This document shows, one piece after another, positions 4,628 through 48,049 of a stretch of 48,049 nt of DNA (position 1 is its first letter; every line of letters starts with the position of its first letter). This DNA is from a virus. Location of the stretch: the IMG/VR virus record IMGVR_UViG_3300045988_024716; one strand, written 5' to 3'. Under the pieces are notes generated by a model that saw only the letters and a list, made by a program, of their open reading frames with translations, did no database searches and was not told the origin of the DNA. Position numbers and translations under genes: made by a program.

Positions 4628-4879
4628 GTGGGTGCTGCGAAGATTTACAAACCAGACGGAAAGTGCAACATTTCCGGCGCGAATGTGCGAGAGGCACGGC
4701 AGCGGGCTGGCCTATCTCAGGAGCAGCTCGCCTACAAGATCCAGATCGCGGGGCTCGACATCACGCAGAAGGCCATCAGCAGGATCGAAACCGGCGACCG
4801 CATCGTCGCGGACTACGAGCTGCAATATCTGGCCGACGCGCTGGAGACCTCGATCCTCAACCTGCTGGGTATAGAATGA
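4628..4879 (+). CDS. XRE-family HTH transcriptional regulator (repressor-type)
   Basis: ISGANVREARQRAGLSQEQLAYKIQIAGLDITQKAISRIETG is a canonical HTH_3 pattern. Start is uncertain because GTG 4628 overlaps the RBS aaaggagg. Confidence 0.8.
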   Translation: MGAAKIYKPDGKCNISGANVREARQRAGLSQEQLAYKIQIAGLDITQKAISRIETGDRIVADYELQYLADALETSILNLLGIE

Positions 4880-4909
4880 GAGCGACGGGAAGGCCCGCCG
4901 CTCTTTTTT
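4880..4909 (+). terminator. Intrinsic terminator after the first XRE gene
   Basis: gagcgacggg / cccgccgctc stem (1 mismatch), loop aagg, then tttttt. Confidence 0.6.
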
Positions 4910-4911
4910 AC

Positions 4912-4940
4912 TTGACATTATAGAGCAAATGCTCTATAAT
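4912..4940 (+). promoter_or_regulatory. Consensus sigma-A promoter TTGACA-17-TATAAT with an embedded 11+11-bp perfect inverted repeat (operator)
   Basis: ttgaca at 4912-4917 and tataat at 4935-4940. The inverted repeat attatagagca-aa-tgctctataat spans 4917-4940. Confidence 0.7.
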
Positions 4941-4970
4941 TAAGGCATAGAAAAACAGGAGGAAATCAGC

Positions 4971-5222
4971 ATGGAGAAGGTCGAAAACAACAGCAATTTG
5001 CAGAGGCTCCGCAAGGCCGCAGGCTTCTCGCAGTCGCAGCTCGCAAAGCTGGCCGGCGTCAACGTCCAAGTGCTTCAGCAGTACGAGCGCGGCGCCCGAG
5101 ACCTGAACGGGGCCAAGCTCCTGACACTCCTCAAGTTATGCAACGCTCTGGAGTGCGGGCTGGCCGACATCATCACGGACAAGGAAACACGGGAGCAGCT
5201 CAGCGCATACGCAGCACACTGA
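4971..5222 (+). CDS. XRE-family HTH transcriptional regulator (Cro/CI-type)
   Basis: LQRLRKAAGFSQSQLAKLAGVNVQVLQQYERGARDLNGAKLLTLLKLCNALEC is an HTH_3 pattern. RBS is acaggagg. Confidence 0.85.
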   Translation: MEKVENNSNLQRLRKAAGFSQSQLAKLAGVNVQVLQQYERGARDLNGAKLLTLLKLCNALECGLADIITDKETREQLSAYAAH

Positions 5223-5227
5223 AAGAA

Positions 5228-5252
5228 GGGACGGCCGGCGGCCGTCCCTTTT
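5228..5252 (+). terminator. Intrinsic terminator
   Basis: Perfect 9-bp stem gggacggcc / ggccgtccc, loop ggc, then tttt. Confidence 0.7.
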
Positions 5253-6345
5253 GCCATTTTCAAGGAGGTACATCATGGGAGAACATTTCAGCCACTTAAC
5301 AATGACCAAGCGGATCCAGATCGACGCTTTTCTGCGTGCCGGCATGAAGCCGACCGAGATCGCCAAGGAGATCGGCGTCCATTATACCACCGTCTACCGG
5401 GAAATGAAGCGGGCCACCTATGAGCACCTCAACAGCGACCTGACCACCGAGATCCGCTACAACCCGGACGAGGCCGACCGGCTCTACCGGGAGCACCTGA
5501 AGGCAAAGGGCCCGGATCTGAAGCTCGGCAACGACTACGAGCTGGCCGACTACCTCGTCGAGAAGATCCGCGACGAGAAGTACAGCCCCGAGGCTGCCGT
5601 CGGCGAGGCCGAGGTCAACGGCTGGCGCTTCAAGACGAAGGTCTGCGCGAGCACCGTCTACAACTACATCCGCGGCGAAGTGTTCGGCGACGATCTCACG
5701 ACCGAAATGCTGCCGCAGGGCGGCAAGCGCAAGCCGGCCAGAAAAGCACCCGAGGGCACCGTCTCCCGAGCCCCGGCAGGCAAGAGCATCGAGCAGCGGC
5801 CGAAAGAAGTCGACACCCGCGAGACCTTCGGCCACTGGGAGATGGACAGCGTCGAAAGCTGCCAAGGCGTCAGCAATACCCTCCTCGTGCTGACTGAGCG
5901 CAAGACCCGGAAGGAGATCATCATCCCGCTGCGGGATAAGACGAGCGCCAGCGTCGTCCGGGCCCTGAACGGCATCGAGCGCAAAGTCGGCGCCCTGTTC
6001 CCGAAGATCTTCGCCAGCATCACGGTCGACAATGGCTGCGAGTTCGCCGACGCGGCCGGCATGGAAAAGAAACGCCGCGGCAAAGGCAAGCGCACCGAGA
6101 TCTACTACTGCCACCCGTACACGCCAAGCGAACGAGGCAGCAACGAGAACCAGAACGGCCTCATCAGGAGGCACATCCCGAAGGGCACCGACCTGAGCCA
6201 AGTCTCGCCCCGGGAAGTCAAACAGGTCGAGGAGTGGCTGAACAATTACCCCCGGAAAATGTTCGGTTTTCTGTGCTCCGAGCAGCTTTTCCGGGCTGAA
6301 ATCGCCGCTCTGCTGCCCTCGTGAAAAATTTTTTAGGCTTTTTTA
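5253..6345 (+). mobile_element. Possible IS30-family element or domesticated transposase locus; ends not defined
   Basis: Transposase gene only. I could not find terminal inverted repeats or target duplications by eye. Confidence 0.3.
5275..6324 (+). CDS. IS30-family DDE transposase / integrase-like recombinase
   Basis: N-terminal HTH (MKPTEIAKEIGVHYTTVYREMKR). Catalytic signature HWEMD ... ITVDNGCEF ... YYCHPYTPSERGSNENQNGLIRRHIPKGTDLS ... LNNYPRKMFG is typical of IS30 transposases. RBS aaggagg precedes ATG 5275. Confidence 0.9.
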   Translation: MGEHFSHLTMTKRIQIDAFLRAGMKPTEIAKEIGVHYTTVYREMKRATYEHLNSDLTTEIRYNPDEADRLYREHLKAKGPDLKLGNDYELADYLVEKIRDEKYSPEAAVGEAEVNGWRFKTKVCASTVYNYIRGEVFGDDLTTEMLPQGGKRKPARKAPEGTVSRAPAGKSIEQRPKEVDTRETFGHWEMDSVESCQGVSNTLLVLTERKTRKEIIIPLRDKTSASVVRALNGIERKVGALFPKIFASITVDNGCEFADAAGMEKKRRGKGKRTEIYYCHPYTPSERGSNENQNGLIRRHIPKGTDLSQVSPREVKQVEEWLNNYPRKMFGFLCSEQLFRAEIAALLPS

Positions 6346-8066: not shown

Positions 8067-8337
8067 AGCCAACGCCATCAAGCAAGAGGCCGCCCTCCTC
8101 TGCCGGGGATCCTTCCCGGCGACTCTCGAGGAAAACGGCGAGCCCTGCGTTGTGGAGGCCAGCATCTACCGGCTCAACGCTGTGGCTGCTGCCGGCTTCA
8201 TGCTGGACGGCCCGGAGAGCCTACTCCTCCACCTCGGCCTCAGTGAGACCGACACCTACATCACCAAGCACGAGATCGACGACCTTGTCACGGTCGTCAG
8301 GATCCTCAGAAAGGAGGCAGACACATGGCAGCATTGA
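8059..8337 (+). CDS. Early protein, unknown function (92 aa)
   Basis: Start overlaps the previous stop. Coding-like composition. Confidence 0.5.
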   Translation: MNKANAIKQEAALLCRGSFPATLEENGEPCVVEASIYRLNAVAAAGFMLDGPESLLLHLGLSETDTYITKHEIDDLVTVVRILRKEADTWQH

Positions 8338-9182
8338 GAGACATCGCCCGAGACGTCGCAGAGGAGATCCGCGACGGCATCGGCTGGGTGATCGTGTACC
8401 GCACCGGCCGCTCGTGGAGCGCCCTGACCCTCTGGAGCGATCTCGGGAGCGGCGAGTGGGAAACCGACGACCTCAACGACGCCATCGGGATCCTGAAAAC
8501 CGACCCGGACGCCGTCGTCCTGAACGGCTACTACTGCGGCCACTTCGGCGAGGGAATGACCATCGACGAGATCGCCGCCGGGATCCGCTGGCACTATGAA
8601 GGCGGCCACAACCGCCTCGCGGACTATTACGAAGTCGAGCAAGGGCTGAACGCCATCGAGGAGGCCCGCAAGACTGCCGAGGCCGCTGGCCTCCCATTCT
8701 GCGAACGTCTGGCCGAGGGCCCGGACGACGAGCTTGACCCGTACACCTACGACGGGAGCATGAGCCTCGACGACTACGAGGCCATGCAGGACGCCAGAAC
8801 AGCCCGGGAGGAGCTCGCTGCCGTCGTGGCAGCACAGGCCCCGGGCCTGCCTGCTGAGAAGCTGGACGAGCTGGCCGCTGCGGCTGCCGGCCTACATATC
8901 AGCCCGGAAACCATGCAGCAGATCCTCGAAGCCTTCGGCCGGGTCGCCGAGGCTGTCAAGGAAATGGCCCGCGCTCTGATGGAGGCGTTCAAGCCGATCA
9001 TCGACTGGGCCAAGAAAACGGTCGAGCGCTTCATGGAGGCGCTGGCCGCCGGCATCGTCCCGAGGAAGTGGCTGCACCTCGCCAAGCACGCCAAGAAGGC
9101 CAGAACCCGCAAGAAGTACCGCAACCGCATCAGGCGGGCCGTGTTCGCCGCTCTGGCCGCGGAAGGAGGTGGGAGCTCATGA
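8325..9182 (+). CDS. Early protein, unknown function (285 aa), basic C-terminal tail
   Basis: RBS aaaggagg. Acidic body, then KHAKKARTRKKYRNRIRR. Confidence 0.6.
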   Translation: MAALRDIARDVAEEIRDGIGWVIVYRTGRSWSALTLWSDLGSGEWETDDLNDAIGILKTDPDAVVLNGYYCGHFGEGMTIDEIAAGIRWHYEGGHNRLADYYEVEQGLNAIEEARKTAEAAGLPFCERLAEGPDDELDPYTYDGSMSLDDYEAMQDARTAREELAAVVAAQAPGLPAEKLDELAAAAAGLHISPETMQQILEAFGRVAEAVKEMARALMEAFKPIIDWAKKTVERFMEALAAGIVPRKWLHLAKHAKKARTRKKYRNRIRRAVFAALAAEGGGSS

Positions 9183-9358
9183 CCGCCAAATGCGTCGGCT
9201 GCGGGCTCGACTGGAACGTCAGCATCTACCAGAAGATCCCCCGCACCGGCTACATCTGCCCGCACTGTGAGAGCCGGATCCGCGCCGGCGAACCGCTGAA
9301 GAATATACAGGCCAGCCCCAAGGGCCGGCCGCCAAGAACGAAAGGAGCAAAACCATGA
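9179..9358 (+). CDS. Small zinc-ribbon protein (59 aa)
   Basis: MTAKCVGCGLDWNV...YICPHCESRI (CxxC ... CxxC). ATGA overlaps at both ends. Confidence 0.5.
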   Translation: MTAKCVGCGLDWNVSIYQKIPRTGYICPHCESRIRAGEPLKNIQASPKGRPPRTKGAKP

Positions 9359-10044
9359 AAAAAGCACTCAAGACCGCGCCCCGCGGCACCGCCTTCAACT
9401 ATGCCGGCCAGCGCTGGGTCGTGCTGGAACATAACGCCACCGGCACCCTCTGCCTGACTGAGAAGATCGTCGAGGATCGCGCCTTCGACGACGGCAACTG
9501 CAACGACTTCAGCAAGTCCAGCAGCCTGCGCTACCTGAACGGCCCCTTCCTCGACACCCTGATCGACGCCGCCGGCTGCTCCAGCGCCTTCCTGACGAGT
9601 GAGCTCGACCTGACGACCGACGACGGTCTGAAGGACTACGGCACCTGCAACGTCACAATCTTCCTGCTGACGGTCGACCAGTACCGGCGCAACCGCGACG
9701 TGATCCCCAACGCAGACGACTGGTGGTGGCTGTCCACGGCCTTCAGCACGGCCTCCAATGGGTACGAGCATAGCGCCCGCGGCGTCCGCGCCGATGGCGC
9801 GCTGGACTGGAACTACGCCTGCTACGGCGGCGGCGGCCTGCGCCCCGCTTGCTATCTGGACTCCGATCTCCTGATCTCCTTCGACGAGCAGGACGTGACC
9901 GCAGAGCAGGCCGGCGACATCGTCAAGGAGCTGATCGAGAGCTTCGGCGGCAGCTTCGCCACCGAGGAGCAGCTCAGAGCTGCGGCCTCCTTCATGCTCG
10001 GCACGCTGCGAGCCACCAGAGAACAGGAGGCGGCCCATGAGTAA
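9355..10044 (+). CDS. Second DGR target protein (229 aa) carrying VR2; DUF6273/DUF1566-like (presumed C-type-lectin-fold) ligand-binding protein
   Basis: Contains VR2. FLLTVDQYRRN...WWWLSTA...GLRPACYLDSDLLIS parallels IFPLSCTEVG...YYWLRDA...GLRPACNLSSDLLVS of the RT-adjacent target. Confidence 0.85.
   Translation: MKKALKTAPRGTAFNYAGQRWVVLEHNATGTLCLTEKIVEDRAFDDGNCNDFSKSSSLRYLNGPFLDTLIDAAGCSSAFLTSELDLTTDDGLKDYGTCNVTIFLLTVDQYRRNRDVIPNADDWWWLSTAFSTASNGYEHSARGVRADGALDWNYACYGGGGLRPACYLDSDLLISFDEQDVTAEQAGDIVKELIESFGGSFATEEQLRAAASFMLGTLRATREQEAAHE
9772..9850 (+). repeat. DGR variable region VR2 (matches TR 45789-45867)
   Basis: 79-bp alignment with 17 mismatches, all at TR adenines. In frame with ORF 9355. 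Shares the A-free 3' element ggcctgcgccccgctt. Confidence 0.9.
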
Positions 10045-10747
10045 CCTGACCGCCCTTCTGAACAAGTACAAGGCCCTCGTGATCTTCGACACCGAGACCA
10101 GTGGCCTCGACTTCGACAAGGATCAGATCATCGAGCTGGCGGCCCTGCGCGTGGAGCGCACGGCCTCCGGCGGGCTGAGGATCGCCGGCAAGATGGACAC
10201 CTTCATCAAGCTGCCCGAGGGCGAGACGCTGCCGGAGAACATCGTCAGCCTGACCGGCATCACCGACGCCCTCCTCCAGACCGAGGGCGTGCAGCCGGCC
10301 AAGGCAGCCAGCCAGATCGCCAAGCTCATGCAGCCGGGCCCCGTCCTGATGATCGCCCACAACGCACAGTTCGACGCCTGCTTTCTTCGCGGCCTGCTGC
10401 GCGGCGCCAAGGTCGGCCGGATCGACTGGCTGGACAGCCTGACGGTCTACAAAGACCGCCGGCCCTACCCTCATAAGCTCGCCAACGCGATCCTTGCCTA
10501 CGAGCTCGAGGACAAGGTGCAGAACAGCCATCGAGCGATCGACGACGTGCTGGCCCTGTTCGAGGTGATGAAGGCGATGGACGACGAGCGTGACGACCTC
10601 GCTGCCTACGTCAACCTGTTCGGCTACAACCCGAAGTACGGCGTCAGCGGCCGCAGGATCGTCGGCGTCAGATATGAGCCGCAGGGCTTCAACAAAGCCA
10701 TGACGCGGCCGGAACAAACCCTCCCGGCCCGCATGGCCCGGAGGTGA
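10037..10747 (+). CDS. DnaQ-like 3'-5' exonuclease (DEDDh, Pol III epsilon family)
   Basis: VIFDTETSGL (ExoI), IAHNAQFDACFL (ExoII), HRAIDDVLALFEV (ExoIII). Confidence 0.85.
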   Translation: MSNLTALLNKYKALVIFDTETSGLDFDKDQIIELAALRVERTASGGLRIAGKMDTFIKLPEGETLPENIVSLTGITDALLQTEGVQPAKAASQIAKLMQPGPVLMIAHNAQFDACFLRGLLRGAKVGRIDWLDSLTVYKDRRPYPHKLANAILAYELEDKVQNSHRAIDDVLALFEVMKAMDDERDDLAAYVNLFGYNPKYGVSGRRIVGVRYEPQGFNKAMTRPEQTLPARMARR

Positions 10748-18908: not shown

Positions 18909-19622
18909 ATGCTCGCAAAAATGATCGACAAAATCGTCGCCCTGAAGGAGACCAAAACCTTCGAGATCGCCGGCCAGACCTACGCCGACGCACCCCTCAC
19001 CCGGATCCCGCCCCACGTCGACCGGCCCGACTGCATCAGCGTCAGCGGCCTCGATGGCATCTGCAAGCTGATCCGCACCGAGCTTGCCAAGATCAACACC
19101 GTCATCATGGTGCAGGCCAAGAGCTACAAGAGCGTCGAGGTCATGACCACCTACCTGCCGGACTTCTCCCGCAATATCCTCTACCGCGCCGAGGCTGACG
19201 TCCCGGGCCTGCGCACAGGTTTTCGCAGCCGCGAGGTCGCGCTGATCGAGCTGCGCAGCCTGTTCATCCCCAACGAGGGCACGGCCTACCTGCTCGACCT
19301 GCTGAGCCGGATGACCGACGAGAACAGCGTCTCCACCAAGGACAACGGCGTCACGCAGACTGTGGAGGCCCGTCAGGGCGTCGCCCTCAACGCTCTCGTC
19401 GAGGTCAAGCCCCGCATCCAGCTCCAGCCGTTCCGCACCTTCCTCGAGGTGCCTCAGCCCGAGAGCGAGTTCCTGCTGCGCGTCGACCCCAACGAGGGGA
19501 TCGGCTTCTTCGAGGCTGACGGCGGCGTCTGGAAACTGGAGGCCAAGCGCAACATCGCCGACTACTTCGAGAAAAACCTGAAGGATCTGATCGAGGCCGG
19601 CAAGGTCGTCGTCATGAAGTAA
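18909..19622 (+). CDS. Hypothetical protein (237 aa; possibly DUF2303/YfdQ-like)
   Basis: RBS aaaggagg. The family guess is from memory only. Confidence 0.5.
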   Translation: MLAKMIDKIVALKETKTFEIAGQTYADAPLTRIPPHVDRPDCISVSGLDGICKLIRTELAKINTVIMVQAKSYKSVEVMTTYLPDFSRNILYRAEADVPGLRTGFRSREVALIELRSLFIPNEGTAYLLDLLSRMTDENSVSTKDNGVTQTVEARQGVALNALVEVKPRIQLQPFRTFLEVPQPESEFLLRVDPNEGIGFFEADGGVWKLEAKRNIADYFEKNLKDLIEAGKVVVMK

Positions 19623-19677
19623 ACCAGAAAGGCCGGGCGGGCAGCACCCGCTCGGCCATCTGAGAAAGGAGCCACAC

Positions 19678-19854
19678 ATGGAGAGACTGACCGCGCAGCG
19701 CTGCAACGGCATCAAGACCGGGTACTGGAGCCCGGCCAAGAAGGATGACCTCGTGCAGCGCCTCGGCCCCTATGAGGACATCGGCCTCGAGCCCGCCGAA
19801 ATCGTGAAACGGCTCAAGGACGCGGAAAAAGCCGCAGAAGGGAGAAACGCATGA
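19678..19854 (+). CDS. Hypothetical small protein (58 aa)
   Basis: ATG 19678 after gaaaggag. ATGA overlap with the next gene. Below the ORF-track cutoff. Confidence 0.4.
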   Translation: MERLTAQRCNGIKTGYWSPAKKDDLVQRLGPYEDIGLEPAEIVKRLKDAEKAAEGRNA

Positions 19855-26866: not shown

Positions 26867-27130
26867 ATGAAAACACGCGCAACAATCGAGGCAGAGCTCA
26901 CAGCCAAAAGGAACCGGCTCGAGCTCTACCTGAAGCGAGAAGCCGAGATGCTGGACGGGGGCGTCCAGAGCTACGGCATCGGCTCCCGCAATCTGGCAAG
27001 GTACAACACCGATCTGAGCCAGATCAGGGACGCCATCAAACAGCTCGAGAAGGAGATCGCCAACCTCGAGGGCGCCTTGAACGGGCAGAAGCCCCGCAAG
27101 GCCGTGGGGGTCGTCCCCCGCGACTGGTAA
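26867..27130 (+). CDS. Small head-completion protein in the gpW position (gpW-like, tentative)
   Basis: 87-aa helical protein between the GpA terminase and the lambda-type portal. Confidence 0.45.
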   Translation: MKTRATIEAELTAKRNRLELYLKREAEMLDGGVQSYGIGSRNLARYNTDLSQIRDAIKQLEKEIANLEGALNGQKPRKAVGVVPRDW

Positions 27131-27141
27131 CATCGGAAAAG

Positions 27142-27162
27142 AGCCCCGCCCGGGGCTTTTTT
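27142..27162 (+). terminator. Intrinsic terminator-like hairpin inside the late operon
   Basis: agcccc / ggggct stem, loop gccc, then tttttt. Confidence 0.5.
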
Positions 27163-27227
27163 CATAGGCATCGGGCCGGGAGTTTTCGCTCCTTTACTCT
27201 CGGCCCCTTGCCATCTTCTAAAAGGAG

Positions 27228-28886
27228 GTGAGCAACATCAGCAAGAAGAAACTCAACAGCCGACCGCAGAGCGGAAGGCAGCAGCCTCGCCCCGTCAATA
27301 AGGGCTACGGCGACGCCGGCGCGAGCTGGCAGAAGAAAGCGACCAAGGGCTTCAGAGCTATGAGCGGCAGCCCGAAGGAGGACATCGACGCCAACAACGC
27401 GACCCTCCGACAGCGTGCCCGTATGCTCTATATGGCGGCCCCGATCGCCACCTCAGCCATCAAGACCAACCGCACCAACGTCATCGGCGTCGGCCTGAAG
27501 CTCCAGAGCCGGATCGACCGCGAGGCCCTCGGCATGGATCAGGAGGCGGCTGACCTGTGGCAGGCAAAGACGGAGCGGGAGTTCGCCCTGTGGGCCAACC
27601 GCAAGGCAGCATGCGACGCCACCGGCGTGAACAACTTCTACGCCATGCAGCAGCTCGCGCTCGCTTCGTGGCTGGTGAGCGGCGACGTGTTCGCCGTCAT
27701 CAAGCAGTACGACCCCACGCCGACCATGCCCTACTCGCTCAGGATCCACCTCGTCGAGGCTGACCGAGTGGCAACCCCGACGGCCGCCGGCATCATGACC
27801 CCGCTGCTGGCGACTACCGGCAAGGCAGCCAACGGCAACACCATCTACGACGGCGTCGAGGTCAACCCCAACGGCATGATCGAGGCATACCACATCCGCA
27901 GCACCTACCCCCTCGAGCTCGGCACGGCGTCGACCAAGTGGACGCGCGTCAAGGCATACGGAGACCGCACCGGCCTCCCGAACATCTTGCAGGTCATGGA
28001 CTCGGAGCGGCCTGACCAGTACAGAGGCGTCAGCTATCTGGCGCAGGTGATCGAGCCGCTGCTTCAGCTTCGCAGGTACACCGAGAGCGAGCTGACAGCC
28101 GCGATCGTCGAGAGCTTTTTCACCACCTTCGTGAAAACGGAGGCCGGGGCGTCCGACAACCCATTCAACGAAGTGGGGAGCAGCCTGCCAGAGGTGAGCC
28201 GCGATCCCAATGAGTACGAGATGGGCCCGGGCCAGATCAACATCATGGAGCCCGGCGAGGACGTCGTATTCGCCGACCCGAAGCGGCCGGCCAGCGGCTT
28301 CGACTCGTTCCTGCGAGCCATCTGCGAACAGGTGGGCGCTGCGCTCGAGATCCCGGCCGACCTGCTGCTGAAGTCCTTCAACAGCTCGTACAGCGCCAGC
28401 CGTGCGGCCCTGCTGGAGGCGTGGAAAGCCTTCAAAATGCGCCGCGAGTGGTTTGTCGCTGACTTCTGCGCCCCGATCTACGAGGTCTGGATGGCCGAAG
28501 CCGTCGCCCGTGGCCGCATTGACGCCCCGGGCTTTTTCGCGGATCCGGCGATCCGCGCCGCCTATCTCGGCGCCGAATGGATCGGCCCGTCTCAGGGCCA
28601 GCTCGATCCAGTCAAGGAGATCACGGCCGAGATCCTCGCAGTCGGCGAAGGCTTCAGCACCCGCGAGCAGAGCACGATCCGGCTCAACGGCGGCCAGTGG
28701 GACGCCAACGTCGACCAGCTCGCACGCGAAAACGCCAAGCTCGCCGAAGCAAACGCGCCCCTTCAGGGCAGCAGCTCCTCCGGCACTGGCGGCGCATCAG
28801 GCGCAACCGAGCCCGGCGTGGTGGCTGCGCTGCGGAACGAAATCATCAAAGCACTCAAGGAGGACGAACACCATGAAAGCAAATAA
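27228..28886 (+). CDS. Portal protein, lambda gpB family
   Basis: LRQRARMLYMAAPIATSAIKTNRTNVIGVGLKLQS... and the overall 550-aa size and position. Start is uncertain because GTG 27228 overlaps the RBS. Confidence 0.9.
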   Translation: MSNISKKKLNSRPQSGRQQPRPVNKGYGDAGASWQKKATKGFRAMSGSPKEDIDANNATLRQRARMLYMAAPIATSAIKTNRTNVIGVGLKLQSRIDREALGMDQEAADLWQAKTEREFALWANRKAACDATGVNNFYAMQQLALASWLVSGDVFAVIKQYDPTPTMPYSLRIHLVEADRVATPTAAGIMTPLLATTGKAANGNTIYDGVEVNPNGMIEAYHIRSTYPLELGTASTKWTRVKAYGDRTGLPNILQVMDSERPDQYRGVSYLAQVIEPLLQLRRYTESELTAAIVESFFTTFVKTEAGASDNPFNEVGSSLPEVSRDPNEYEMGPGQINIMEPGEDVVFADPKRPASGFDSFLRAICEQVGAALEIPADLLLKSFNSSYSASRAALLEAWKAFKMRREWFVADFCAPIYEVWMAEAVARGRIDAPGFFADPAIRAAYLGAEWIGPSQGQLDPVKEITAEILAVGEGFSTREQSTIRLNGGQWDANVDQLARENAKLAEANAPLQGSSSSGTGGASGATEPGVVAALRNEIIKALKEDEHHESK

Positions 28887-35641: not shown

Positions 35642-37696
35642 ATGGCAGGAAAAGGGAAAGAGCTTCAGGCGGTCGTCAATCTGGCCGGCAGCATCGACCC
35701 CTCACTCGGGAAGGCGATCGAGTCCGCACAGAAAAAGATCAGCGGCCTGAACGTGAAAGCTCTCGCCGTGGGTGCCGCCGTCGGCGGCATCGCGGTCGCC
35801 ACTGGCAAGGCCGTGGTGGAGGCCGGCAAGTACCTGAAGGATCTCGGCAGCCAGTTCGACGAAGCAGCCGACGCCATCCGCATCGGCACCGGCGCGACCG
35901 GCGACGCTCTGGATGGGCTGCTCGATGACTTCGACGAGGTCTACAAGAGCGTGCCGACTACTATGGAGGACGCCAGCAAAGCCATCGCGGACTACAACAC
36001 CCGGCTCGGCCTGACCGGCCCGCAGCTTCAGGAGATCTCCAAGCAGGCGCTCCAAGTGAGCGATATGCTGGGGGACGACCTCGGCGGCGTGATAGAGGAG
36101 TCGAGCCAAGCCTTCCAACAGTGGAACATCGACGCCGACAACATGGGCGGCGCGATGGACTACATCTTCAAGGTCAGCCAGAGCACCGGCATGGGCTTTA
36201 CTGACCTTATGAGCAATATGCAGAAGTTCGGCCCACAGCTTCAGGAGATGGGCTATTCCTTCGAGACAGCGAGCGCCCTCATGGGTCAGCTCGACAAGGC
36301 CGGCGTCAACACTGAGGAAGTCCTCAGCGCCATGAAAAAGAGCGTCGGCGCACTGGCGAAGGAAGGCATCAGCGCGAGCGATGGGCTGGCTATGTACTAC
36401 GAGCAGATCAAGAACGCAGGCACGGCCGCAGAGGCCGCAAGCATCGCGTCGGAGATCTTCGGCACCAAGGCCGGATCCACAATGGCCGCAGCGATCAGAG
36501 ACGGCACTCTCGCCGTCGGAGATCTGACGGAAAGCCTGCTGGAGAACGGCGAAACCATCGCCGGCGCGGCCGAGGACACCTACGACTTCGCCGAGCGGCT
36601 CCAGATCATGAAGCAGGGCCTCGAGGTCGCCCTGAAGCCGATGGCAAACACCGTGTTCGACGGCCTCAACAAGTTCATGCCCGTGCTGCAAAAGCTCATG
36701 GAGCAGATCGTCCCGGTCATCAGCGACGCGGTCGAGGCTGCGGCGCCTTTTGTCGAGGAGTTCCTCATGGGAGCGGCTGACGCTCTCGAGGACGTGCTGC
36801 CGCTGATCTCTCAGCTCGCGGCTGATCTGCTGCCAATCCTGACGCAGCTCATGAGCACCCTGCTCCCGCCGCTGCTCAGTTTGGTGCAGACTCTACTCCC
36901 GCCACTGATGCAGATCGTCGGGGCAATTTTGCCGCCGATCGCCAGCCTTCTGAGCACGATCCTCCCCATGATAACGCAGATCGTGAGCGCTGTGCTGCCG
37001 GTACTGGTGCAGATTATTTCCGCGCTGCTGCCGGTCATCACCCCGCTGCTGGAGGTCGCGCTTCAGATCGTCAACGACGTCATCATGCCGCTGCTGCCGC
37101 CTCTGATGCAGATCGTCCAAGCACTGCTGCCGCCTCTCGTGTCTCTGCTCAACCTCGTTATGCCGATCCTGAGCCCTCTGCTGGCCCTGCTTCAGCCGAT
37201 CGCCTCCGTGCTGGGGACGATCGCCGACGTCATCGCCAAGATCGTGAGCTTCGGCTCCGGCGTCATCAGTAAGATCGCCGGCCTGTTCGGCGGCGGGGGC
37301 GGCGGCGGGGGCGTCTCCGGCTTCGCAACTGGCGGCTTCACGAGCGGCCCGTCCATCGCGGGCGAGGATCCGCGATACCCTACCGAGGCTGTCATCAGCT
37401 TCAACCCTGCATACCGCAGCGAAAACCTCGAATACTGGGCCAAGGCCGGGCAAATGCTCGGCGCGTCCAACGAAAGCGACTACGAGCTGCTGAGCGGAGG
37501 CTCGAGCACGTCCGTGGTCTACGACCTGAGCGGGCTCTCCTTTTCCCCGCAGATCAAGATCGAAGGCGACACCGACGAGGACGCCCTGATCCGCAAGCTG
37601 CGCGAGCTGGAACCCGAGTTCATTGACTTCGTTCTCGAAGCACTAAGCAGAAGGGAGGGCGGCGCCTATGTCACAGCAGACAGTCGGCTTTATTGA
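35642..37696 (+). CDS. Tail tape measure protein
   Basis: Ala/Gly/Leu-rich 684-aa protein. Hydrophobic ~11-aa tandem repeats (LLPPLMQIV...). GGGGGGG stretch. C-terminal part follows. Confidence 0.9.
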   Translation: MAGKGKELQAVVNLAGSIDPSLGKAIESAQKKISGLNVKALAVGAAVGGIAVATGKAVVEAGKYLKDLGSQFDEAADAIRIGTGATGDALDGLLDDFDEVYKSVPTTMEDASKAIADYNTRLGLTGPQLQEISKQALQVSDMLGDDLGGVIEESSQAFQQWNIDADNMGGAMDYIFKVSQSTGMGFTDLMSNMQKFGPQLQEMGYSFETASALMGQLDKAGVNTEEVLSAMKKSVGALAKEGISASDGLAMYYEQIKNAGTAAEAASIASEIFGTKAGSTMAAAIRDGTLAVGDLTESLLENGETIAGAAEDTYDFAERLQIMKQGLEVALKPMANTVFDGLNKFMPVLQKLMEQIVPVISDAVEAAAPFVEEFLMGAADALEDVLPLISQLAADLLPILTQLMSTLLPPLLSLVQTLLPPLMQIVGAILPPIASLLSTILPMITQIVSAVLPVLVQIISALLPVITPLLEVALQIVNDVIMPLLPPLMQIVQALLPPLVSLLNLVMPILSPLLALLQPIASVLGTIADVIAKIVSFGSGVISKIAGLFGGGGGGGGVSGFATGGFTSGPSIAGEDPRYPTEAVISFNPAYRSENLEYWAKAGQMLGASNESDYELLSGGSSTSVVYDLSGLSFSPQIKIEGDTDEDALIRKLRELEPEFIDFVLEALSRREGGAYVTADSRLY

Positions 37697-42159: not shown

Positions 42160-42909
42160 ATGGCTGCATTTATCAACAACGACATCACGGCTGCCGGTCT
42201 GATCGTCCTCGCAAAGGGCGCAGCCGGCCAGAAAATCACCTACACCAAGATCGTCCTCGGCGACGGCTACCTCGAGGAGGGCCAGACGCCCCGCTCCCTC
42301 ACCGGCGTGGTCAGCCCGAAGGCGGTCATTGACATCACCAAGCTGAAGGTCAACACCGACGGCACCGTGGCGGTCGGCGGCATCTTCACCAACGACCAGA
42401 CGAGCGACGGCTTTTTCTACCGCGAGCTGGGCCTCTACGCAGAGGATCCCGACCCGGCCGTCGGCGAGGTGCTGTACTGCTACGGCAACTGCGGCGACCT
42501 CGCTGAGTGGATCCCGCCCACCGGCGGCGCCACCATCGTCGAGAAAACCATCGACATCGTCACCGCGATCGGCACAGCCACCAACGTCACCGCCTACATC
42601 CCGGCCGACGCCTACGCAACCAAGGAGGACTACGAGACCTACAAGGCCATCGCCCTCGCAGCGCAGGCCATCGCCAACGAGGCCATCGAGATCGCCCGGC
42701 AGGCCGTCCAGACGGCCAACGAAGCCAAGCAGGCCACGATCGACCTCAACAAGGCCGTGACGCAGAACACCAGCAAGATCCAAACCCTGTGGGACGCCGT
42801 TTTCAGCGAAATCACGAGCAACCCCTTCCAGATCACATTTGTGGATTTGTCTGGCATCACCCTGAGCTCCGGCATCTGGAACGCTACACTCCAGCGGCTC
42901 GAGTGCTAA
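42160..42909 (+). CDS. Tail fibre protein with an N-terminal tail-collar fibre domain and a C-terminal ..RLEC module
   Basis: ITAAGLIVLAKGAAGQKITYTKIVLGDG.......P.SLTGVVSP resembles the P2 gpH N-terminus / DUF3751. The last 40 aa are paralogous to the end of ORF 44862. Confidence 0.75.
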   Translation: MAAFINNDITAAGLIVLAKGAAGQKITYTKIVLGDGYLEEGQTPRSLTGVVSPKAVIDITKLKVNTDGTVAVGGIFTNDQTSDGFFYRELGLYAEDPDPAVGEVLYCYGNCGDLAEWIPPTGGATIVEKTIDIVTAIGTATNVTAYIPADAYATKEDYETYKAIALAAQAIANEAIEIARQAVQTANEAKQATIDLNKAVTQNTSKIQTLWDAVFSEITSNPFQITFVDLSGITLSSGIWNATLQRLEC

Positions 42910-43705: not shown

Positions 43706-44848
43706 ATGAAGTTTTTGACCAACCTCGACCTCAGCCAGAACGAGATCCAGAACGCGGTCATCCAGCCTCTCGCGGCGGCTCCGGCCAACCCCAAGCTCGG
43801 CCAGATCTACTACAACAGCTCCGACTCGCTGCTCTATCAGTACGACGGAGCACAGTGGAAACCCGTCGGCAAGGGCTACGAGCTGCCCACTGCTACCAAG
43901 ACCGCCCTCGGCGGCATCAAGGTGGGCGACCGCCTCAGCGTGGCTGCGGACGGCACGCTCTCGGCTGACAAGCAGACCGACAACAACCTGACCGCCACCC
44001 TGAAGGCCAACTACGACGCCGCATACCAGCACAGTCAGGCCGACCACGCGCCGGCCGACGCCGAGAAGAACGTCCAGAGCGACTGGAACGTGACCGACTC
44101 GACGAGCGACGCCTTCATCAAGAACAAGCCCACGATCCCTTCGCAGGCGTCTGACGTGGGTGCAATTCCCACCAGCCAGAAGGGCGCAGCCGGCGGCGTG
44201 GCAGAGCTGGACAGCTCCGGCCATGTTCCTGCCGATCAGCTCCCGAGCTATGTGGACGACGTCATCGACGCCTACATCGTGAGCGGGGCCACGGCCTTCT
44301 CGTCCGGCTGGCTGTCTGCGAGCGACGGCGGCGCAGCTCTGACGCCCGAGTCTGGCAAGGTCTACATCATCCTGACGGCCGGCCAGTACGAGGCGCAGAC
44401 CTACCGCTGGAGCGGCACCGTCTACGCGCCGATCGGCAACGATCTGGCCCTCGGCGAGACAGAGAACACCGCATACCGCGGCGACCGCGGCAAGGTGGCA
44501 TACGAGCACAGTCAGGCGCAGCACGCGCCGGCCGACGCCGAGAAGAACGTGCAGGCCGACTGGAATGTGGAGGACACCAACAGCGACGCCTACATCCGGA
44601 ACAAGCCGACCATCCCGAAGGCCGTCACCAAGACCGTGCAAACCATGACCGCCGCAACGACCGCGACCTACACAGTCAGCGGCTACATTGTCAGCGTCGT
44701 GCTGATCGACAGCGTCACCAAGGAGCAGATCATGGGTGACCTGAGCTTCGACAACGCCACGGCCTCAGCCAACAGCAAAGTGACCGTGACCTTCTCGGCA
44801 GCTCCTACCAACCCTGTCCTCGTAATCATCACCAGCGTCGCGCTGTAA
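43706..44848 (+). CDS. Tail fibre protein with an internal duplicated 37-aa motif
   Basis: MKFLTNLDLSQNEIQNAVIQPLAAAP.NPKLGQIYYNS....LYQYDG..W is a common fibre N-terminus. Contains two ..DWNV.D..SDA(F/Y)I(K/R)NKPTIP repeats. Confidence 0.75.
   Translation: MKFLTNLDLSQNEIQNAVIQPLAAAPANPKLGQIYYNSSDSLLYQYDGAQWKPVGKGYELPTATKTALGGIKVGDRLSVAADGTLSADKQTDNNLTATLKANYDAAYQHSQADHAPADAEKNVQSDWNVTDSTSDAFIKNKPTIPSQASDVGAIPTSQKGAAGGVAELDSSGHVPADQLPSYVDDVIDAYIVSGATAFSSGWLSASDGGAALTPESGKVYIILTAGQYEAQTYRWSGTVYAPIGNDLALGETENTAYRGDRGKVAYEHSQAQHAPADAEKNVQADWNVEDTNSDAYIRNKPTIPKAVTKTVQTMTAATTATYTVSGYIVSVVLIDSVTKEQIMGDLSFDNATASANSKVTVTFSAAPTNPVLVIITSVAL
44030..44139 (+). repeat. Intragenic direct repeat, copy 1 (HSQADHAPADAEKNVQSDWNVTDSTSDAFIKNKPTIP)
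   Basis: Aligns with 44507-44616 over 110 bp with scattered substitutions. Confidence 0.85.
44507..44616 (+). repeat. Intragenic direct repeat, copy 2 (HSQAQHAPADAEKNVQADWNVEDTNSDAYIRNKPTIP)
   Basis: Aligns with 44030-44139. Confidence 0.85.
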
Positions 44849-44861
44849 GGAGGGCCGGGCC

Positions 44862-45080
44862 ATGAAACACTACGGAGCCGTCGAGGATCCCAAGGATCTC
44901 ACGACGAAGGAATACGTCGACACGGCTGACGCAGTTCTCAAGGTCAAGGTCGACGCCCTATGGGACGCGATTTTTGTAGACATCACCGCCAACCCCTTCC
45001 AGATCACCTTCGAGACCCTCGAGGGCGTCACAGTGACGACCGGCATCTGGAACGAGAGCTACGCGAGGCTCGAGTGCTGA
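44862..45080 (+). CDS. Small fibre-associated protein (72 aa) consisting mostly of the ..RLEC module
   Basis: LWDAIFVDITANPFQITFETLEGVTVTTGIWNESYARLEC versus LWDAVFSEITSNPFQITFVDLSGITLSSGIWNATLQRLEC at 42787-42909. Confidence 0.55.
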   Translation: MKHYGAVEDPKDLTTKEYVDTADAVLKVKVDALWDAIFVDITANPFQITFETLEGVTVTTGIWNESYARLEC

Positions 45081-45340
45081 TGCGCGGCGGCTATGACTAC
45101 ACCCCGATCCCGCTGAGCGAGGCGTCCTGCATCATCGCCCACCTGTTCGCCGAGCTGGCGCTGCCATGCTCCTGCTGCAACAGGGAGGACAACGACGAGA
45201 TCGTCATACAGGGCACCGCCTACGACGGAACCGGGGCCAAGATCATCATCAAAGGCAAGGAGGTGAGGTACTACGGCAAGCAACGGACACTCGCGGCAAT
45301 ACGAGCGGGCCAATGTAGGCCGCCCGCCCTTCGGCCGTGA
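45080..45340 (+). CDS. Hypothetical Cys-containing protein (86 aa) between the fibre genes and avd
   Basis: ATGA-coupled ORF. LPCSCCNRED motif. No family recognised. Confidence 0.4.
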   Translation: MRGGYDYTPIPLSEASCIIAHLFAELALPCSCCNREDNDEIVIQGTAYDGTGAKIIIKGKEVRYYGKQRTLAAIRAGQCRPPALRP

Positions 45341-45353
45341 GAAACTGCCAGAG

Positions 45354-45740
45354 ATGCAGGTCATCACCGACGCCAAGGAGCTGCGAAAGCACACATACAA
45401 GAAGGTCAGAAACACCAACATCTTCCCGAAAAAGGACAGGCTGCTCGCCGACAAAATGTTCGACGAGGCAGCCGATCTGGTGGCTGACCTGATGGAGGCC
45501 AACGACCACCTCCTGACCGACCCGGAGGAGCGGGAGCTGCGCTTCAGGGCGCAGCGGTCGGCTCTGCGTAACTGCCGCAAGCTGATCGACAACATCGAGT
45601 TCGCCCACGAGAACCTCCCGGGCGTGACCGATGACGCCTTCGCCTTCTGGTCAAGACTGGCGGCCGGGGTCAAGAACCAGACCGCCGCATGGTACAAAAA
45701 AGATAGAGAAAGGGCTGCCAAGCTGGTCACAAAGACCTAA
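45354..45740 (+). CDS. avd: DGR accessory variability determinant (Avd)-like four-helix-bundle protein
   Basis: 128 aa, basic, helical. IFPKKDRLLADKMFDEAADLVADLMEAN...R......L..L..L...IEFA.E......F..W......V.N...AWYKKDR matches the Avd/four-helix-bundle pattern. Lies immediately upstream of TR and RT. Confidence 0.75.
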   Translation: MQVITDAKELRKHTYKKVRNTNIFPKKDRLLADKMFDEAADLVADLMEANDHLLTDPEERELRFRAQRSALRNCRKLIDNIEFAHENLPGVTDDAFAFWSRLAAGVKNQTAAWYKKDRERAAKLVTKT

Positions 45741-45772
45741 CAGCAGCCCCGTGGGGTATGCCTTGTTTTTTC

Positions 45773-45867
45773 GTGCCGGGTCGGCCAACAACGCCCGCAA
45801 CGTCAACACCGATGGCACGCTGAACAGGAACAACGCCTACAACGGCAACAACGGCCTGCGCCCCGCT
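45773..45867 (+). repeat. DGR template repeat (TR): 25 adenines including 10 AAC codons
   Basis: 95-bp repeat of VR1 and 79-bp repeat of VR2. All differences are at TR adenines. Located between avd and RT. Confidence 0.92.
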
Positions 45868-46059
45868 TCGATGGATCGCTCGACTTATTAACCGGCCGAG
45901 AGGCCGGCGAACACAATGCACCATCATCCAAGGAAGGCATATCCCTCCCGCAGCCGCGGCCGTCTGACCGGCCGGGTCATGGGTAAACACAGGACTGCTG
46001 ATGCTGCCGGCGGCGCACGCAAAGCGTGGCCGGGGCTATCCACGGCAGAGATTTTTAAC

Positions 46060-47280
46060 ATGGAGAACCAAGTCAACAGCTTCGTCGCCCTTTACAAAGC
46101 GTACCAGAAAACACGCTGCGGAAAGCGCGACAACCCGACCGCCATGCGCTACCGCATGGAGGCCATCGAGCGCACCGCTGACCTCTCGGATCGGCTTCAG
46201 AGGCGGGACTATACCTTCGGCCCCTACTACCCCTTCAAGGTGTACGAGCCCAAGGAGCGCCTCGTCCTCGCCATTGACTTCGAGGGGAAGGTCGTGCAGC
46301 ACTCCCTCTGTGACAACGTCCTCGAGCCCTGCTTCTCCCGGCGCTTCATCCGGGACAACTACGCAGGACAGATCGGCAAAGGCACGCACGACGGCCTCGA
46401 CCGTCTGGCTGACGCCATGCGCCACTATTTCTTCAGCCGCAAGGCAGCAGACGAAGCAGCCCGCAGAGCTGCCGGCCTGCCATACCGGCCGATGGAGGAA
46501 TGGGACTACGCGGACGGCTGGGTGCTCAAGGGAGATTTTTCAAAGTTCTTTTATACACTCGTCCACGCCATCTGCTTCGAGAAAGCAAAGAAGGCGCTCG
46601 CCTTCCTGTCCGATCCCGAGCTCCGGGACTTCGTCGAGTGGCTGCTGTGGCTCATAATCGACAGCACGCCAGATCCGGGCATCCCGATCGGCAACCAGAG
46701 CAGCCAGCTCCTCGCGCTGCTATATCTGGACGACTTCGACCACTGGCTGCGCGACGACCTCGGCCTCGTCTACGGCCGATACATGGACGACTTCTACATC
46801 ATCAGCAGCGACAAGCTGCTGCTCCGCAGGATCCTGAAGGAGATCGAGGACTACATCAAGCCCCTCGGCCTGCGGCTGAACAACAAGACGCAGATCTTCC
46901 CGCTGAAGAACGGCATCGACTTCCTCGGTTTTCACACCTACCTCACGAGCACGGGCAAGGTGGTCAGAAAAGTGAGGGCCAAGAGCATCGACAACATGAA
47001 GCGGAAGATCCGCAAGTACCGCGGCCTCGTGGACTCCGGCAGGATGACGCTCGAGAGCGTCCTCCAGTCCTACGCGAGCTGGTGCGGCCATATTTCCCAC
47101 GGGAACACCTACCACCTGCGGCAGAACATGGACGCCTACTTCTTCGGCTACTTCCCGGAGCTGAGGCCAACACCGAAAGGAGAAAACACACATGGCCCAA
47201 AAACTGAGCAACCTCGCAAACAAGTCGAAGGTGAAGTTCGGCACCATTCACGGCAAGCCGATCATCTGGCTCGTGGCTGA
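46060..47280 (+). CDS. DGR reverse transcriptase
   Basis: YKAYQKTRCGKR....MRY......L...L....Y.FGPYYPFKVYEPKERLVLAIDFEGKVVQHSL ... GIPIGNQSSQLLALLYL ... GRYMDDFYIIS (YxDD box) ... GLRLN.KTQIF....GIDFLGF. The maximal ORF starts at 45916; ATG 46060 fits the conserved N-terminus. Confidence 0.92.
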   Translation: MENQVNSFVALYKAYQKTRCGKRDNPTAMRYRMEAIERTADLSDRLQRRDYTFGPYYPFKVYEPKERLVLAIDFEGKVVQHSLCDNVLEPCFSRRFIRDNYAGQIGKGTHDGLDRLADAMRHYFFSRKAADEAARRAAGLPYRPMEEWDYADGWVLKGDFSKFFYTLVHAICFEKAKKALAFLSDPELRDFVEWLLWLIIDSTPDPGIPIGNQSSQLLALLYLDDFDHWLRDDLGLVYGRYMDDFYIISSDKLLLRRILKEIEDYIKPLGLRLNNKTQIFPLKNGIDFLGFHTYLTSTGKVVRKVRAKSIDNMKRKIRKYRGLVDSGRMTLESVLQSYASWCGHISHGNTYHLRQNMDAYFFGYFPELRPTPKGENTHGPKTEQPRKQVEGEVRHHSRQADHLARG

Positions 47281-48049
47281 CAAGAACCACGCGGGCTACC
47301 CTTCCAACAGCGTGACACTGGTCACGAACCAGATCATCAAAATGCTGTGCTTCGACGCGAAGGAAAGCGCGAACAGCAACAGCGACCGCAGAAGCTACGG
47401 CAACAACAGGTACATCTACTCGAACCTGCGCCAGTGGCTCAACAGCGCGGCCGCTGCCGGCGCGTGGTACACCGCACAGCACTCCGCTGATGCAGCGCCT
47501 ACCTCCGGCAACGTCTGGAACGGCTACAACGCCTACGACGGCCTCGCCGGCTTCCTGAACGCTTTCACGGCCGACGAACGTGCGGCCCTGCTCGATACCA
47601 CCATCACGGTCGGCAAGAGCTCCACTGACGGCGGCGGGACGGAGACCTGCACCGACAAGATCTTCCCGCTGTCCTGCACTGAGGTCGGCCTCTCCGGCGA
47701 CCATACCTGCGGCAGCAAGCTGGCGATCTTCAGCGACAACAGCAGCCGCATCGCAACCGTGACGGCTGAGTGCGTCGCCAACTCCAACTACAACAGCAAC
47801 CCGGCCGCAAATGCCGCGTGGTACTACTGGCTGCGCGACGCCTATGCCGGGTCGGCCCTCAACGCCCGCCTCGTCGTCACCGATGGCACGCTGTACAGGG
47901 ACGGCGCCTACTACGGCATCGACGGCCTGCGCCCCGCTTGTAATCTTTCCTCTGATCTCCTTGTCTCCGACTCCACCGACTCGGACGGCTGCTGCACGGT
48001 CATCTACAATCAGGCGCCCACCGCGCCGAGCACCATCAACGTGCCGAGC
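47192..48049 (+). CDS. 5' part of the DGR target / tail-fibre-like protein carrying VR1 (continues at 1..907 on the circle)
   Basis: ATG 47192 after aaaggag. No stop before the window end. DKIFPLSCTEVG..., AWYYWLRDAYAGSALNARLVVTDGTLYRDGAYYGIDGLRPAC. Overlaps the RT 3' end by 89 nt. Confidence 0.85.
   Translation, partial: MAQKLSNLANKSKVKFGTIHGKPIIWLVADKNHAGYPSNSVTLVTNQIIKMLCFDAKESANSNSDRRSYGNNRYIYSNLRQWLNSAAAAGAWYTAQHSADAAPTSGNVWNGYNAYDGLAGFLNAFTADERAALLDTTITVGKSSTDGGGTETCTDKIFPLSCTEVGLSGDHTCGSKLAIFSDNSSRIATVTAECVANSNYNSNPAANAAWYYWLRDAYAGSALNARLVVTDGTLYRDGAYYGIDGLRPACNLSSDLLVSDSTDSDGCCTVIYNQAPTAPSTINVPS
47845..47939 (+). repeat. DGR variable region VR1 (matches TR 45773-45867)
   Basis: 95-bp alignment with 13 mismatches, all at TR adenines (for example aac->ctc, gtc, tac, gac, ggc, atc). 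Confidence 0.92.
47995..48049. repeat. Terminal overlap, second copy of bases 1-55
   Basis: Identical 55-mer. Confidence 0.9.

Follow-up and report, generated by a model that had tools for sequence, protein, structure and literature searches.

Diversity-generating retroelements (DGRs) are common in gut phages, and the architecture that concerns us here was published in 2023 for nd4-like phages. As described by Baykov et al. (2023, PMC10743442), nd4 and nd12 have the same DGR system with two target genes, one of which was named tentaclin. In the account of nd4 given there, target 1 is a protein of 569 residues with an N-terminal DUF6273/C-lec domain and three immunoglobulin (Ig)-like domains, target 2 is a small DUF6273 protein, the template repeat (TR) has 25 adenines, and the second variable repeat (VR2) is shorter than the first (VR1). 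Among Faecalibacterium prophages, Lelie and CP11 have one large and one small DUF6273 target (PMC11792537), while in Mushu and Brigit the DGR target is "Hoc-like" (PMC11792537; Cornuault et al. 2018, cited both there and in PMC10743442). Baykov et al. (2023, PMC10743442) report that the Mushu/Brigit targets have low similarity to those of nd4 at the protein level. For phage BPP-1, where the genes are arranged mtd-avd-TR-brt, the particle formed by the reverse transcriptase (RT) bRT, Avd, and RNA contains 1) a duplex, termed "cPRT Stop," in which sequences on either side of the TR pair with each other, and 2) a stem-loop directly after the TR that is capped by a tetraloop and binds Avd (Handa et al., bioRxiv 10.1101/2023.10.23.563531). 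The DGR variations catalogued by Wu et al. (2018) include internal variable repeats (VRs), targets downstream of the RT gene, and nonadjacent prophage targets. Here, we analyze the IMG/VR virus record IMGVR_UViG_3300045988_024716, a 48,049-nucleotide stretch of DNA that we refer to in its entirety as the window, and we conclude that it almost certainly carries an active DGR.

The locus in the window (Table 1) is very close to that of nd4 (OR777945.1). Both show the order tail fibre, avd, TR, RT, and target 1, with a distant target 2; both have a TR with 25 adenines, which differs at 2 positions between them, and a VR2 shorter than VR1; and their DGR regions are 85% identical in DNA over the whole length. 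In contrast, the encoded proteins (87% identity for the RT, 80.5% for target 1, 73% for Avd, and 69% for target 2) set the two apart as distinct lineages, and the window has ∼2 kb of extra tail-fibre-like genes (43706–45080) between its fibre gene and the DGR. The DGRs of Faecalibacterium prophages, which also come from gut Clostridia phages, resemble the window in having one TR and two VRs and in their DUF6273 targets with the VR at the C-terminal end of the domain, some of them with Ig-like arrays; phage Lelie gives a single short DNA match with the window (58 nucleotides, in the RT gene), and the two belong to different phage groups. With BPP-1, the window shares adenine-specific TR-to-VR mutagenesis, AAC codons, the avd-TR-RT core order, a homologous RT, an accessory protein with a predicted Avd fold, a lectin-like variable domain, a duplex across the TR, and a tetraloop hairpin after it. 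It differs from BPP-1 in several respects: a target lies downstream of the RT gene, whereas that of BPP-1 precedes avd; a second target is present at a distance of 11.9 kb; VR1 sits inside its gene; DUF6273 proteins take the place of the Mtd trimer as targets; no hairpin is detected 3′ of the VRs by folding; and Avd shows no likeness to bAvd that is detectable by sequence. An earlier reading of the letters and open reading frames (ORFs) of the window, which we call the original prediction, had remarked on the departure of the order avd-TR-RT-target from that of BPP-1; this is true, but it is a known variant, the same as in nd4.

One line of evidence for a DGR is the relationship between the TR and its copies. 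In an ungapped comparison, the TR aligns to VR1 at an offset of +2071, and all 13 mismatches are at TR adenines. Given that 25 of the 95 TR positions are A (the others being 37 C, 24 G, and 9 T), the hypergeometric probability of all 13 differences landing on A is 1.5e-9. Read in the frame of VR1, the TR holds 20 of its 25 A in the 10 AAC codons and has no A at third codon positions. The original prediction had described 95-bp repeats with 13 differences, each at a TR adenine, and the same concentration of adenines in AAC codons; the computed alignment, which contains no substitution unrelated to TR adenines, bears this out, together with the codons quoted as an example (aac aac gcc cgc aac gtc aac acc in the TR and ctc aac gcc cgc ctc gtc gtc acc in VR1). 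The predicted coordinates were right for VR1 and one base too low for the TR (45773–45867). The original prediction had also proposed a search of the whole contig with the TR. The A-masked 3′ part of the TR occurs in exactly three copies in the window (TR, VR1, and 9816–9850); it is absent from shuffled sequence, and none are expected by chance. The third copy belongs to VR2, which spans 21 TR-adenine columns and likewise differs from the TR only at adenines, with 15 differences (16 if the boundary column 9773 is included) and a chance figure of 4.3e-12. Similarity to the TR ends upstream of the VR2 boundary, and VR2 is therefore shorter than VR1. At their other end, the TR and both VRs finish in a common 16-nucleotide A-free stretch, GGCCTGCGCCCCGCTT, after which they diverge.

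An 86-residue ORF (45631–45891) runs through the TR in the VR frame (...NNARNVNTDGTLNRNNAYNGNNGLRPA...), and the nd4 record has a similar 50-residue "hypothetical protein" annotated across its TR (19605–19757). The ORF in the window is most likely a by-product of the TR copying coding sequence and not a gene.

Relatives of the window show the same adenine-specific pattern on a larger scale and point to recent diversification. With the RT as query, 80 loci were found in IMG/VR, 49 of which have both a TR and a VR1, giving 50 pairs with the window included. When each TR was compared with its own VR1, 749 differences were found at A-columns and 23 elsewhere, in agreement with the substitution pattern that had been predicted. 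Across these pairs, there are 14 distinct TRs vs. 47 distinct VR1s, and all 25 TR adenines are changed in some VR1 without any stop codon arising. Similarly, VR2 in 80 sequences differs from the TR at A-columns 1035 times and elsewhere 83 times, most of the latter being a single G-to-T column that matches the commonest TR variant. The comparison with one contig, L003, is especially telling. Over 7131 ungapped nucleotides, it is 98.9% identical to the window, with 76 mismatches, 17 of which lie inside the 95-nucleotide VR1, all at A-columns, and none in the TR; divergence is 17.9% in VR1 and 0.84% elsewhere. For VR2, 12 of the 30 mismatches between the window and contig L083 are inside the repeat, and the contigs nearest to the window around target 2 (97–98% identical) have 12–17 of their 30–39 differences there. 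Since near-identical genomes differ at their A-columns, VR1 and VR2 are real DGR targets that have been recently rewritten.

The spectrum of changes in VR1 (loci L003–L064) depends on codon position. At the second position, A-to-G and A-to-T are frequent but A-to-C is nearly absent (2 of 566 cells), and at the first position each of the three changes is seen. The rarity of A-to-C at the second position could reflect either selection against Thr or a mutational bias, and it is likewise reported for nd4 by Baykov et al. (2023, PMC10743442).

The RNA around the TR is structured, and several of its elements are backed by covariation. A long-range duplex brackets the TR, and its 12 of 12 pairs are kept in 21 of 21 distinct relatives, with two compensatory columns, one changing from U-A to C-G (10 vs. 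11 sequences) and the other from A-U to G-C (1 sequence). In the same relatives, the spacer between the TR and the RT gene has a mean column identity of 91%, whereas the DNA of the DGR as a whole is only ∼85% identical between the window and relatives such as nd4. In the consensus helices of the spacer, 98% of cells are paired vs. 32–52% when the partners are slid by 1–3 columns. Besides the bracketing duplex, compensatory changes are seen at three pairs, among them one G-C to C-G pair in the GNRA hairpin after the TR (8 vs. 8 sequences) and one U-A to C-G pair in the hairpin just upstream of the RT start (14 vs. 7 sequences). A local helix proposed by RNAalifold (GG.AGG/CCU.CC, columns 66–83 of alignment A2), which uses the same bases as the duplex, was rejected in favor of the latter because the duplex shows compensatory changes and the local helix never varies. 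The bracketing duplex is a candidate analogue of the cPRT Stop duplex of BPP-1. By the same analogy, an invariant helix between GAUGG (45870–45874) and CCAUC (45921–45925), which abuts the 3′ end of the TR/VR homology, is a candidate for the template:primer duplex. No Rfam family, group II intron or retron noncoding RNA (ncRNA) included, was matched in the window at gathering thresholds. A T-run before the TR was considered as a terminator but is unsupported since a promoter/terminator scan of 44800–47300 gave no site on the + strand.

The RT has the motifs and the overall match expected of a DGR enzyme. Its IGNQSSQ motif (residues 210–216) fits the IGxxxSQ pattern typical of DGR RTs, and the YMDD box (residues 241–244) lies within GRYMDDFYII. 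The best match in the PDB is 8ub7 (a 328-residue chain named "Reverse transcriptase," E 1.5e-35), which we take to be the Bordetella phage bRT; it spans residues 3–358 and includes the N-terminal extension. The next PDB match is a group II intron RT (E 5.4e-10), and the protein also matches phrog_1423 (E 4.7e-118) and Pfam RVT_1. Judged by these sequence matches, the RT belongs to the DGR clade. The YxDD box named in the original prediction is present as YMDD. The 3′ end of the RT gene overlaps the 5′ end of target 1 by 89 nucleotides in a different frame (47192–47280).

Upstream of the TR, the 128-residue ORF that had been described as Avd-like is present, and it matches phrog_3206, "Avd protein of DGR" (E 4.1e-21). 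Its AF2 model is a four-helix bundle (pLDDT 92.8), for which the highest TM-scores in the PDB were obtained with 2rld (TMt 0.84), presumably a member of the family that includes Avd, and with bAvd, 4dwl (TMq 0.75, TMt 0.87, and root-mean-square deviation 2.0 Å). Model and family match together support a predicted Avd-like four-helix-bundle accessory protein.

Target 1 wraps around the end of the window. Bases 1–55 are an exact copy of 47995–48049, and the window is thus a circular or terminally redundant assembly with 47,994 bp of unique sequence. The circular junction cuts target gene 1, and because of the exact 55-bp overlap the ORF carries on past the window end to position 907. An AAGGAG ribosome-binding site lies upstream of its start at 47192. 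The nd4 record annotates a later start (21141), which gives 542 residues; the 569-residue form is supported by the paper of Baykov et al. and by the full-length match of target 1 to phrog_10993, labelled "Hoc-like head decoration" (E 3e-237). The original prediction had confined the element to 45354–47939 and placed it at the end of the tail-fibre module. The limits were too narrow since target 1 runs from 47192 to 907 and a second target lies at 9355–10044; the placement holds as a position but not as an identity, target 1 not being a recognizable tail fibre.

The variable part of target 1 is predicted to lie on a lectin-like domain. Residues 39–253 match Pfam DUF6273 (E 8e-39), and VR1, at residues 218–250 of 569, is therefore in the N-terminal half of the protein and not at the C terminus, unlike in Mtd. 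In an AF2 model of residues 1–274 (47192–48013; pLDDT 95.5), VR1 falls on beta-strands 224–228 and 234–238, which form a beta-hairpin. The sole strong fold match in the PDB is the immunoglobulin A (IgA) peptidase of Thomasclavelia ramosa, 9qa6 (E 5e-17, TMq 0.72, and 25% identity). The N-terminal domain of that enzyme is, according to the authors of PDB 9qa6, a decorated C-type-lectin-like domain, dispensable for IgA cleavage and of unknown function. Unlike target 1, the peptidase is a bacterial surface metallopeptidase and not a DGR target; a DUF6273-type domain is thus common to gut-phage DGR targets and a gut-bacterial surface enzyme. The VRs of DGRs sit in ligand-binding domains of C-type-lectin (or Ig) fold that tolerate variation, and these matches and the model support a C-type-lectin-like (DUF6273) VR domain in both targets. 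Each of the 10 Asn codons (AAC) gives access to up to 15 residues and never to a stop, 5 further TR codons each carry one mutable adenine, and the mutable codons map to the beta-hairpin region of this decorated C-type-lectin-like domain.

After the DUF6273 domain, the first domain of target 1 is FN3-like (titin, E 1.7e-4; FN3con, E 2.4e-3), and further beta-rich sequence follows it, with a sub-threshold match to Big_9. The full-length match to phrog_10993, together with the 80.5% identity to nd4 target 1 and the same length of 569 residues, argues for an nd4-type stalk of three Ig/FN3 domains. As described by Baykov et al. (2023, PMC10743442), tentaclins consist of an N-terminal C-lec (DUF6273) domain with the VR on a beta-hairpin, followed by one to four Ig/FN3-like domains, and they have a C-terminal Ig-like "anchor" domain with a seven-residue consensus. 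Target 1 would be a tentaclin, anchor domain included, on the strength of its full-length homology with the nd4 protein.

Table 1. Coordinates in the window of the DGR, its RNA elements, and its target genes
Feature	Position	Strand	Remarks
Putative avd (accessory variability determinant)	45354–45740	+	128 residues; PHROG match, four-helix-bundle model
5′ arm (GGGGTATGCCTT) of long-range RNA duplex bracketing the TR	45753–45764	+	9 nt upstream of TR
TR (template repeat)	45774–45868	+	95 nt, 25 A, 10 AAC codons
Noncoding TR–RT spacer, structured 3′ part of DGR RNA	45869–46059	+	191 nt
Hairpin CCGGCC-GAGA-GGCCGG with GNRA tetraloop, candidate Avd-binding stem-loop	45892–45907	+	23 nt after TR
3′ arm (AAGGCATATCCC) of TR-bracketing duplex	45934–45945	+	Complementary to 45753–45764
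Conserved spacer hairpin	45947–45983	+	One compensatory pair, G-C to C-G
Conserved long spacer hairpin just upstream of RT start	45995–46048	+	One compensatory pair
DGR reverse transcriptase (predicted)	46060–47280	+	406 residues; IGNQSSQ at 46687–46707, YMDD at 46780–46791
Target gene 1, 5′ part, "tentaclin"-type protein	47192–48049	+	Continues at 56–907; 569 residues in total
VR1, variable repeat in target 1 (residues 218–250)	47845–47939	+	95 nt, 13 differences from TR
Candidate IMH-like cis element directly 3′ of VR1	47940–47969	+	Counterpart after VR2 at 9851–9880
Target gene 1, 3′ part, predicted FN3/Ig-like domains	56–907	+	ORF rebuilt across terminal overlap
Target gene 2, DUF6273 domain	9355–10044	+	229 residues; Pfam, PHROG, nd4 synteny
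VR2, variable repeat in target 2	9774–9850	+	Aligns with TR 45792–45868; shorter than VR1

The sequence that follows the VRs is a candidate cis element. The 30-nucleotide flanks after VR1 and VR2 have 21 of 30 bases alike, and each is like the TR flank at only 6–9 of 30; among relatives, the first 30 nucleotides of the VR flanks are conserved at 0.95–0.96 and the next 60 at 0.82–0.89. This conserved flank fits an element like the initiation of mutagenic homing (IMH) site, which in DGRs joins a G+C-rich stretch to a flank unlike that of the IMH* of the TR and directs one-way transfer; since the flank overlaps a conserved protein motif, a cis function is inseparable from coding constraint. By analogy with BPP-1, the element may work as follows. 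A transcript of avd, TR, and spacer would be bound by the RT-Avd complex, and the spacer would prime complementary DNA (cDNA) synthesis in cis beside the 3′ end of the TR. The RT would then copy the TR, with random nucleotides inserted opposite adenines, and synthesis would stop at the bracketing duplex 9 nucleotides upstream of the TR. Finally, the cDNA would replace VR1 and VR2, guided by the A-free and G+C-rich 3′ end (GGCCTGCGCCCCGCTT) together with the conserved VR flank.

Taken together, these findings comprise all testable elements of a DGR, i.e., an RT, an Avd-like protein, a TR/VR pair, structured RNA with covariation, and A-specific diversification, and they support the original prediction of a complete DGR. 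Nevertheless, several points weigh against this interpretation or parts of it. The activity is deduced from differences between assemblies and not from within one population, and the priming, stopping, and homing steps are drawn by analogy with BPP-1. The candidate primer helix never varies, and covariation is therefore uninformative on it. About 3% of the TR/VR1 differences in relatives are at non-A positions. A hairpin or cruciform like that of BPP-1, a feature that DGRs do not universally have, was not found 3′ of the VRs: DNA folding of 90 nucleotides around each VR end yielded z-values of +0.62 (VR1) and −1.73 (VR2) and no tetraloop hairpin rich in G+C. In a Foldseek search with the target 1 model, neither Mtd nor any classical C-type lectin was matched significantly. 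For the Avd candidate, Pfam, NCBIfam, and PADLOC gave no match, and PDB searches, whether with the single sequence or a 22-sequence profile, yielded chance matches only. The original prediction had suggested a comparison with Avd structures, and it succeeded for the fold but not for a PDB sequence match; because the sequence searches found nothing, the assignment rests on the PHROG match and the fold. The Foldseek E-values of the model against Avd structures are weak (0.006–0.4), as is usual for helical bundles.

Two of these points, i.e., that the evidence for activity does not come from reads within a population and that the VRs lack a BPP-1-type hairpin, would suit a decayed DGR, a fossil cassette that is recognizable but no longer mutagenic, in which the TR/VR differences are relics. 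We consider this very improbable. The ORFs of avd, RT, and both targets are intact, the catalytic motifs of the RT are present, and the RNA elements have been maintained by compensatory changes. Moreover, a genome that is 98.9% identical to the window and has the same TR differs from it at 17 A-columns of VR1, and contigs that are 97–98% identical put 12–17 of 30–39 differences in the target 2 region into VR2.

Still less probable is that the VRs owe their diversity to ordinary diversifying selection or recombination on a receptor-binding loop, with the RT serving some other role. Phage receptor-binding loops are often hypervariable, and a few non-A differences do exist (23 of 772). However, such processes would not confine 97% of differences to the 26% of columns with a TR adenine, would not make two unrelated genes follow a single template, and would not spare third codon positions. 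A third alternative, an RT of retron, group II intron, or Abi/DRT defence type beside coincidental repeats, is rejected as scarcely credible; the original prediction had named a grouping with retron, group II intron, or Abi RTs as an outcome that would overturn it. Models of group II, Drt3a, retron, and AbiK RTs match the catalytic core only weakly, far below the curated cut-offs of NCBIfam and PADLOC, and cover only residues ∼150–320. The bRT match, in comparison, spans residues 3–358 and is 25 orders of magnitude better than the next. The IGxxxSQ motif, the Avd-like gene next to the TR, and the TR/VR pattern also speak against this alternative, and no ncRNA of a group II intron or retron was recognized by Rfam in the window.

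An active DGR in the window would diversify a second protein besides target 1. Target 2 matches Pfam DUF6273 (E 1.1e-8) and phrog_9958 (E 4.6e-65), is 69% identical to its nd4 counterpart, and consists of the DUF6273 domain alone plus a helical tail, with no obvious N-terminal signal peptide by eye. Counted over the circular junction, VR2 and the TR lie ∼11.9 kb apart. The gene is found among early/replication-type genes outside the structural module, between an LPD15 protein (8325–9182) and an RNase_T/DnaQ-like exonuclease (10037–10747), and the synteny is the same in nd4, where target 2 likewise adjoins a DnaQ-like exonuclease gene. A receptor-binding role like that of Mtd was assumed for target 2 by Baykov et al. 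(2023, PMC10743442). From its position among early/replication genes, which is the sole support for a nonvirion protein, one might speculate that target 2 is instead an early-expressed, nonstructural protein with a diversified binding surface, directed for example against variable host defence or takeover targets, but we regard this as unlikely. If it were true, one TR would diversify an external adhesin (target 1) and an intracellular binder (target 2) simultaneously.

The window represents the ∼48-kb circularly assembled genome of a contractile-tailed, nd4-like phage from human-gut Clostridia. The TR-spacer junction is exactly matched in 15 GTDB genome contigs. One 46.7-kb contig of a metagenome-assembled genome (MAG), 98% identical to the window, was binned as Coriobacteriaceae, and contig L173 (SFGZ01000016.1) is 98.3–98.8% identical to the window; L173, L164, L167–L169, and L177 are phage-sized or short DGR-bearing contigs in MAGs labelled Coriobacteriaceae, Collinsella, or Alistipes. 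These labels were rejected as host assignments since the binning of phage contigs is unreliable and they are probably artefacts. As evidence of integration, only large isolate contigs were counted, and relatives that are 81–84% identical lie inside such contigs of cultured Butyricicoccus pullicaecorum DSM 23266 and of Oscillospiraceae bacterium 44-34. In addition, an Avd homologue is on record in Flavonifractor plautii, the species in which, as reported by Baykov et al. (2023, PMC10743442), the sole nd4-like prophage turned up. Most likely, the host belongs to the Oscillospirales of the gut.

Several neighboring genes and repeats in the window deserve mention. Within the extra tail-fibre-like genes, the ORF at 43706–44848 (380 residues) has an internal 119-nucleotide direct repeat (44021–44139 and 44498–44616, 83% identical), and the C terminus of the ORF at 44862–45080 (72 residues) repeats that of the fibre gene at 42160–42909, both matching phrog_22716; the region 43706–45080, which directly precedes the DGR, has the appearance of a fibre module that was duplicated or inserted. 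Farther away, seven degenerate direct repeats of ∼41 nucleotides (36828–37219), spaced by 21–87 nucleotides (all multiples of 3), fall where synteny with nd4 predicts the tape-measure gene. A 357-residue ORF (5251–6324) with an N-terminal HTH_38 domain, which by eye has the look of an IS30-type transposase or integrase, is preceded by two Cro/CI-type helix-turn-helix (HTH) genes (4628–4879 and 4971–5222), and a gene of comparable size occupies the corresponding position in nd4 (27130–28176); the HTH genes and the HTH_38 ORF (4628–6324) are possibly a lysogeny module. Between the lysin gene and these regulators, the sole sizeable minus-strand gene in that part of the window (3747–4508) encodes a protein in which DUF4236, TM2, and SWIM zinc-finger domains occur together.

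Although the architecture of this DGR was already known from nd4, two modest additions can be made. First, the DGR has been recently active in this lineage, in which genomes that are ∼99% identical and have identical TRs carry VRs reshuffled at A-columns. Second, the TR is bracketed by a covariation-backed duplex and followed by a GNRA hairpin, TR-flanking RNA elements that were not found in the Results, Discussion, and figure legends of PMC10743442. Because the duplex and the hairpin correspond to elements of the bRT-Avd-RNA structure, the RNA mechanism of BPP-1 probably extends to this DGR of a Clostridia phage. The likely function of the element is the rapid retuning of ligand binding, the ligand being a host receptor or another surface ligand.

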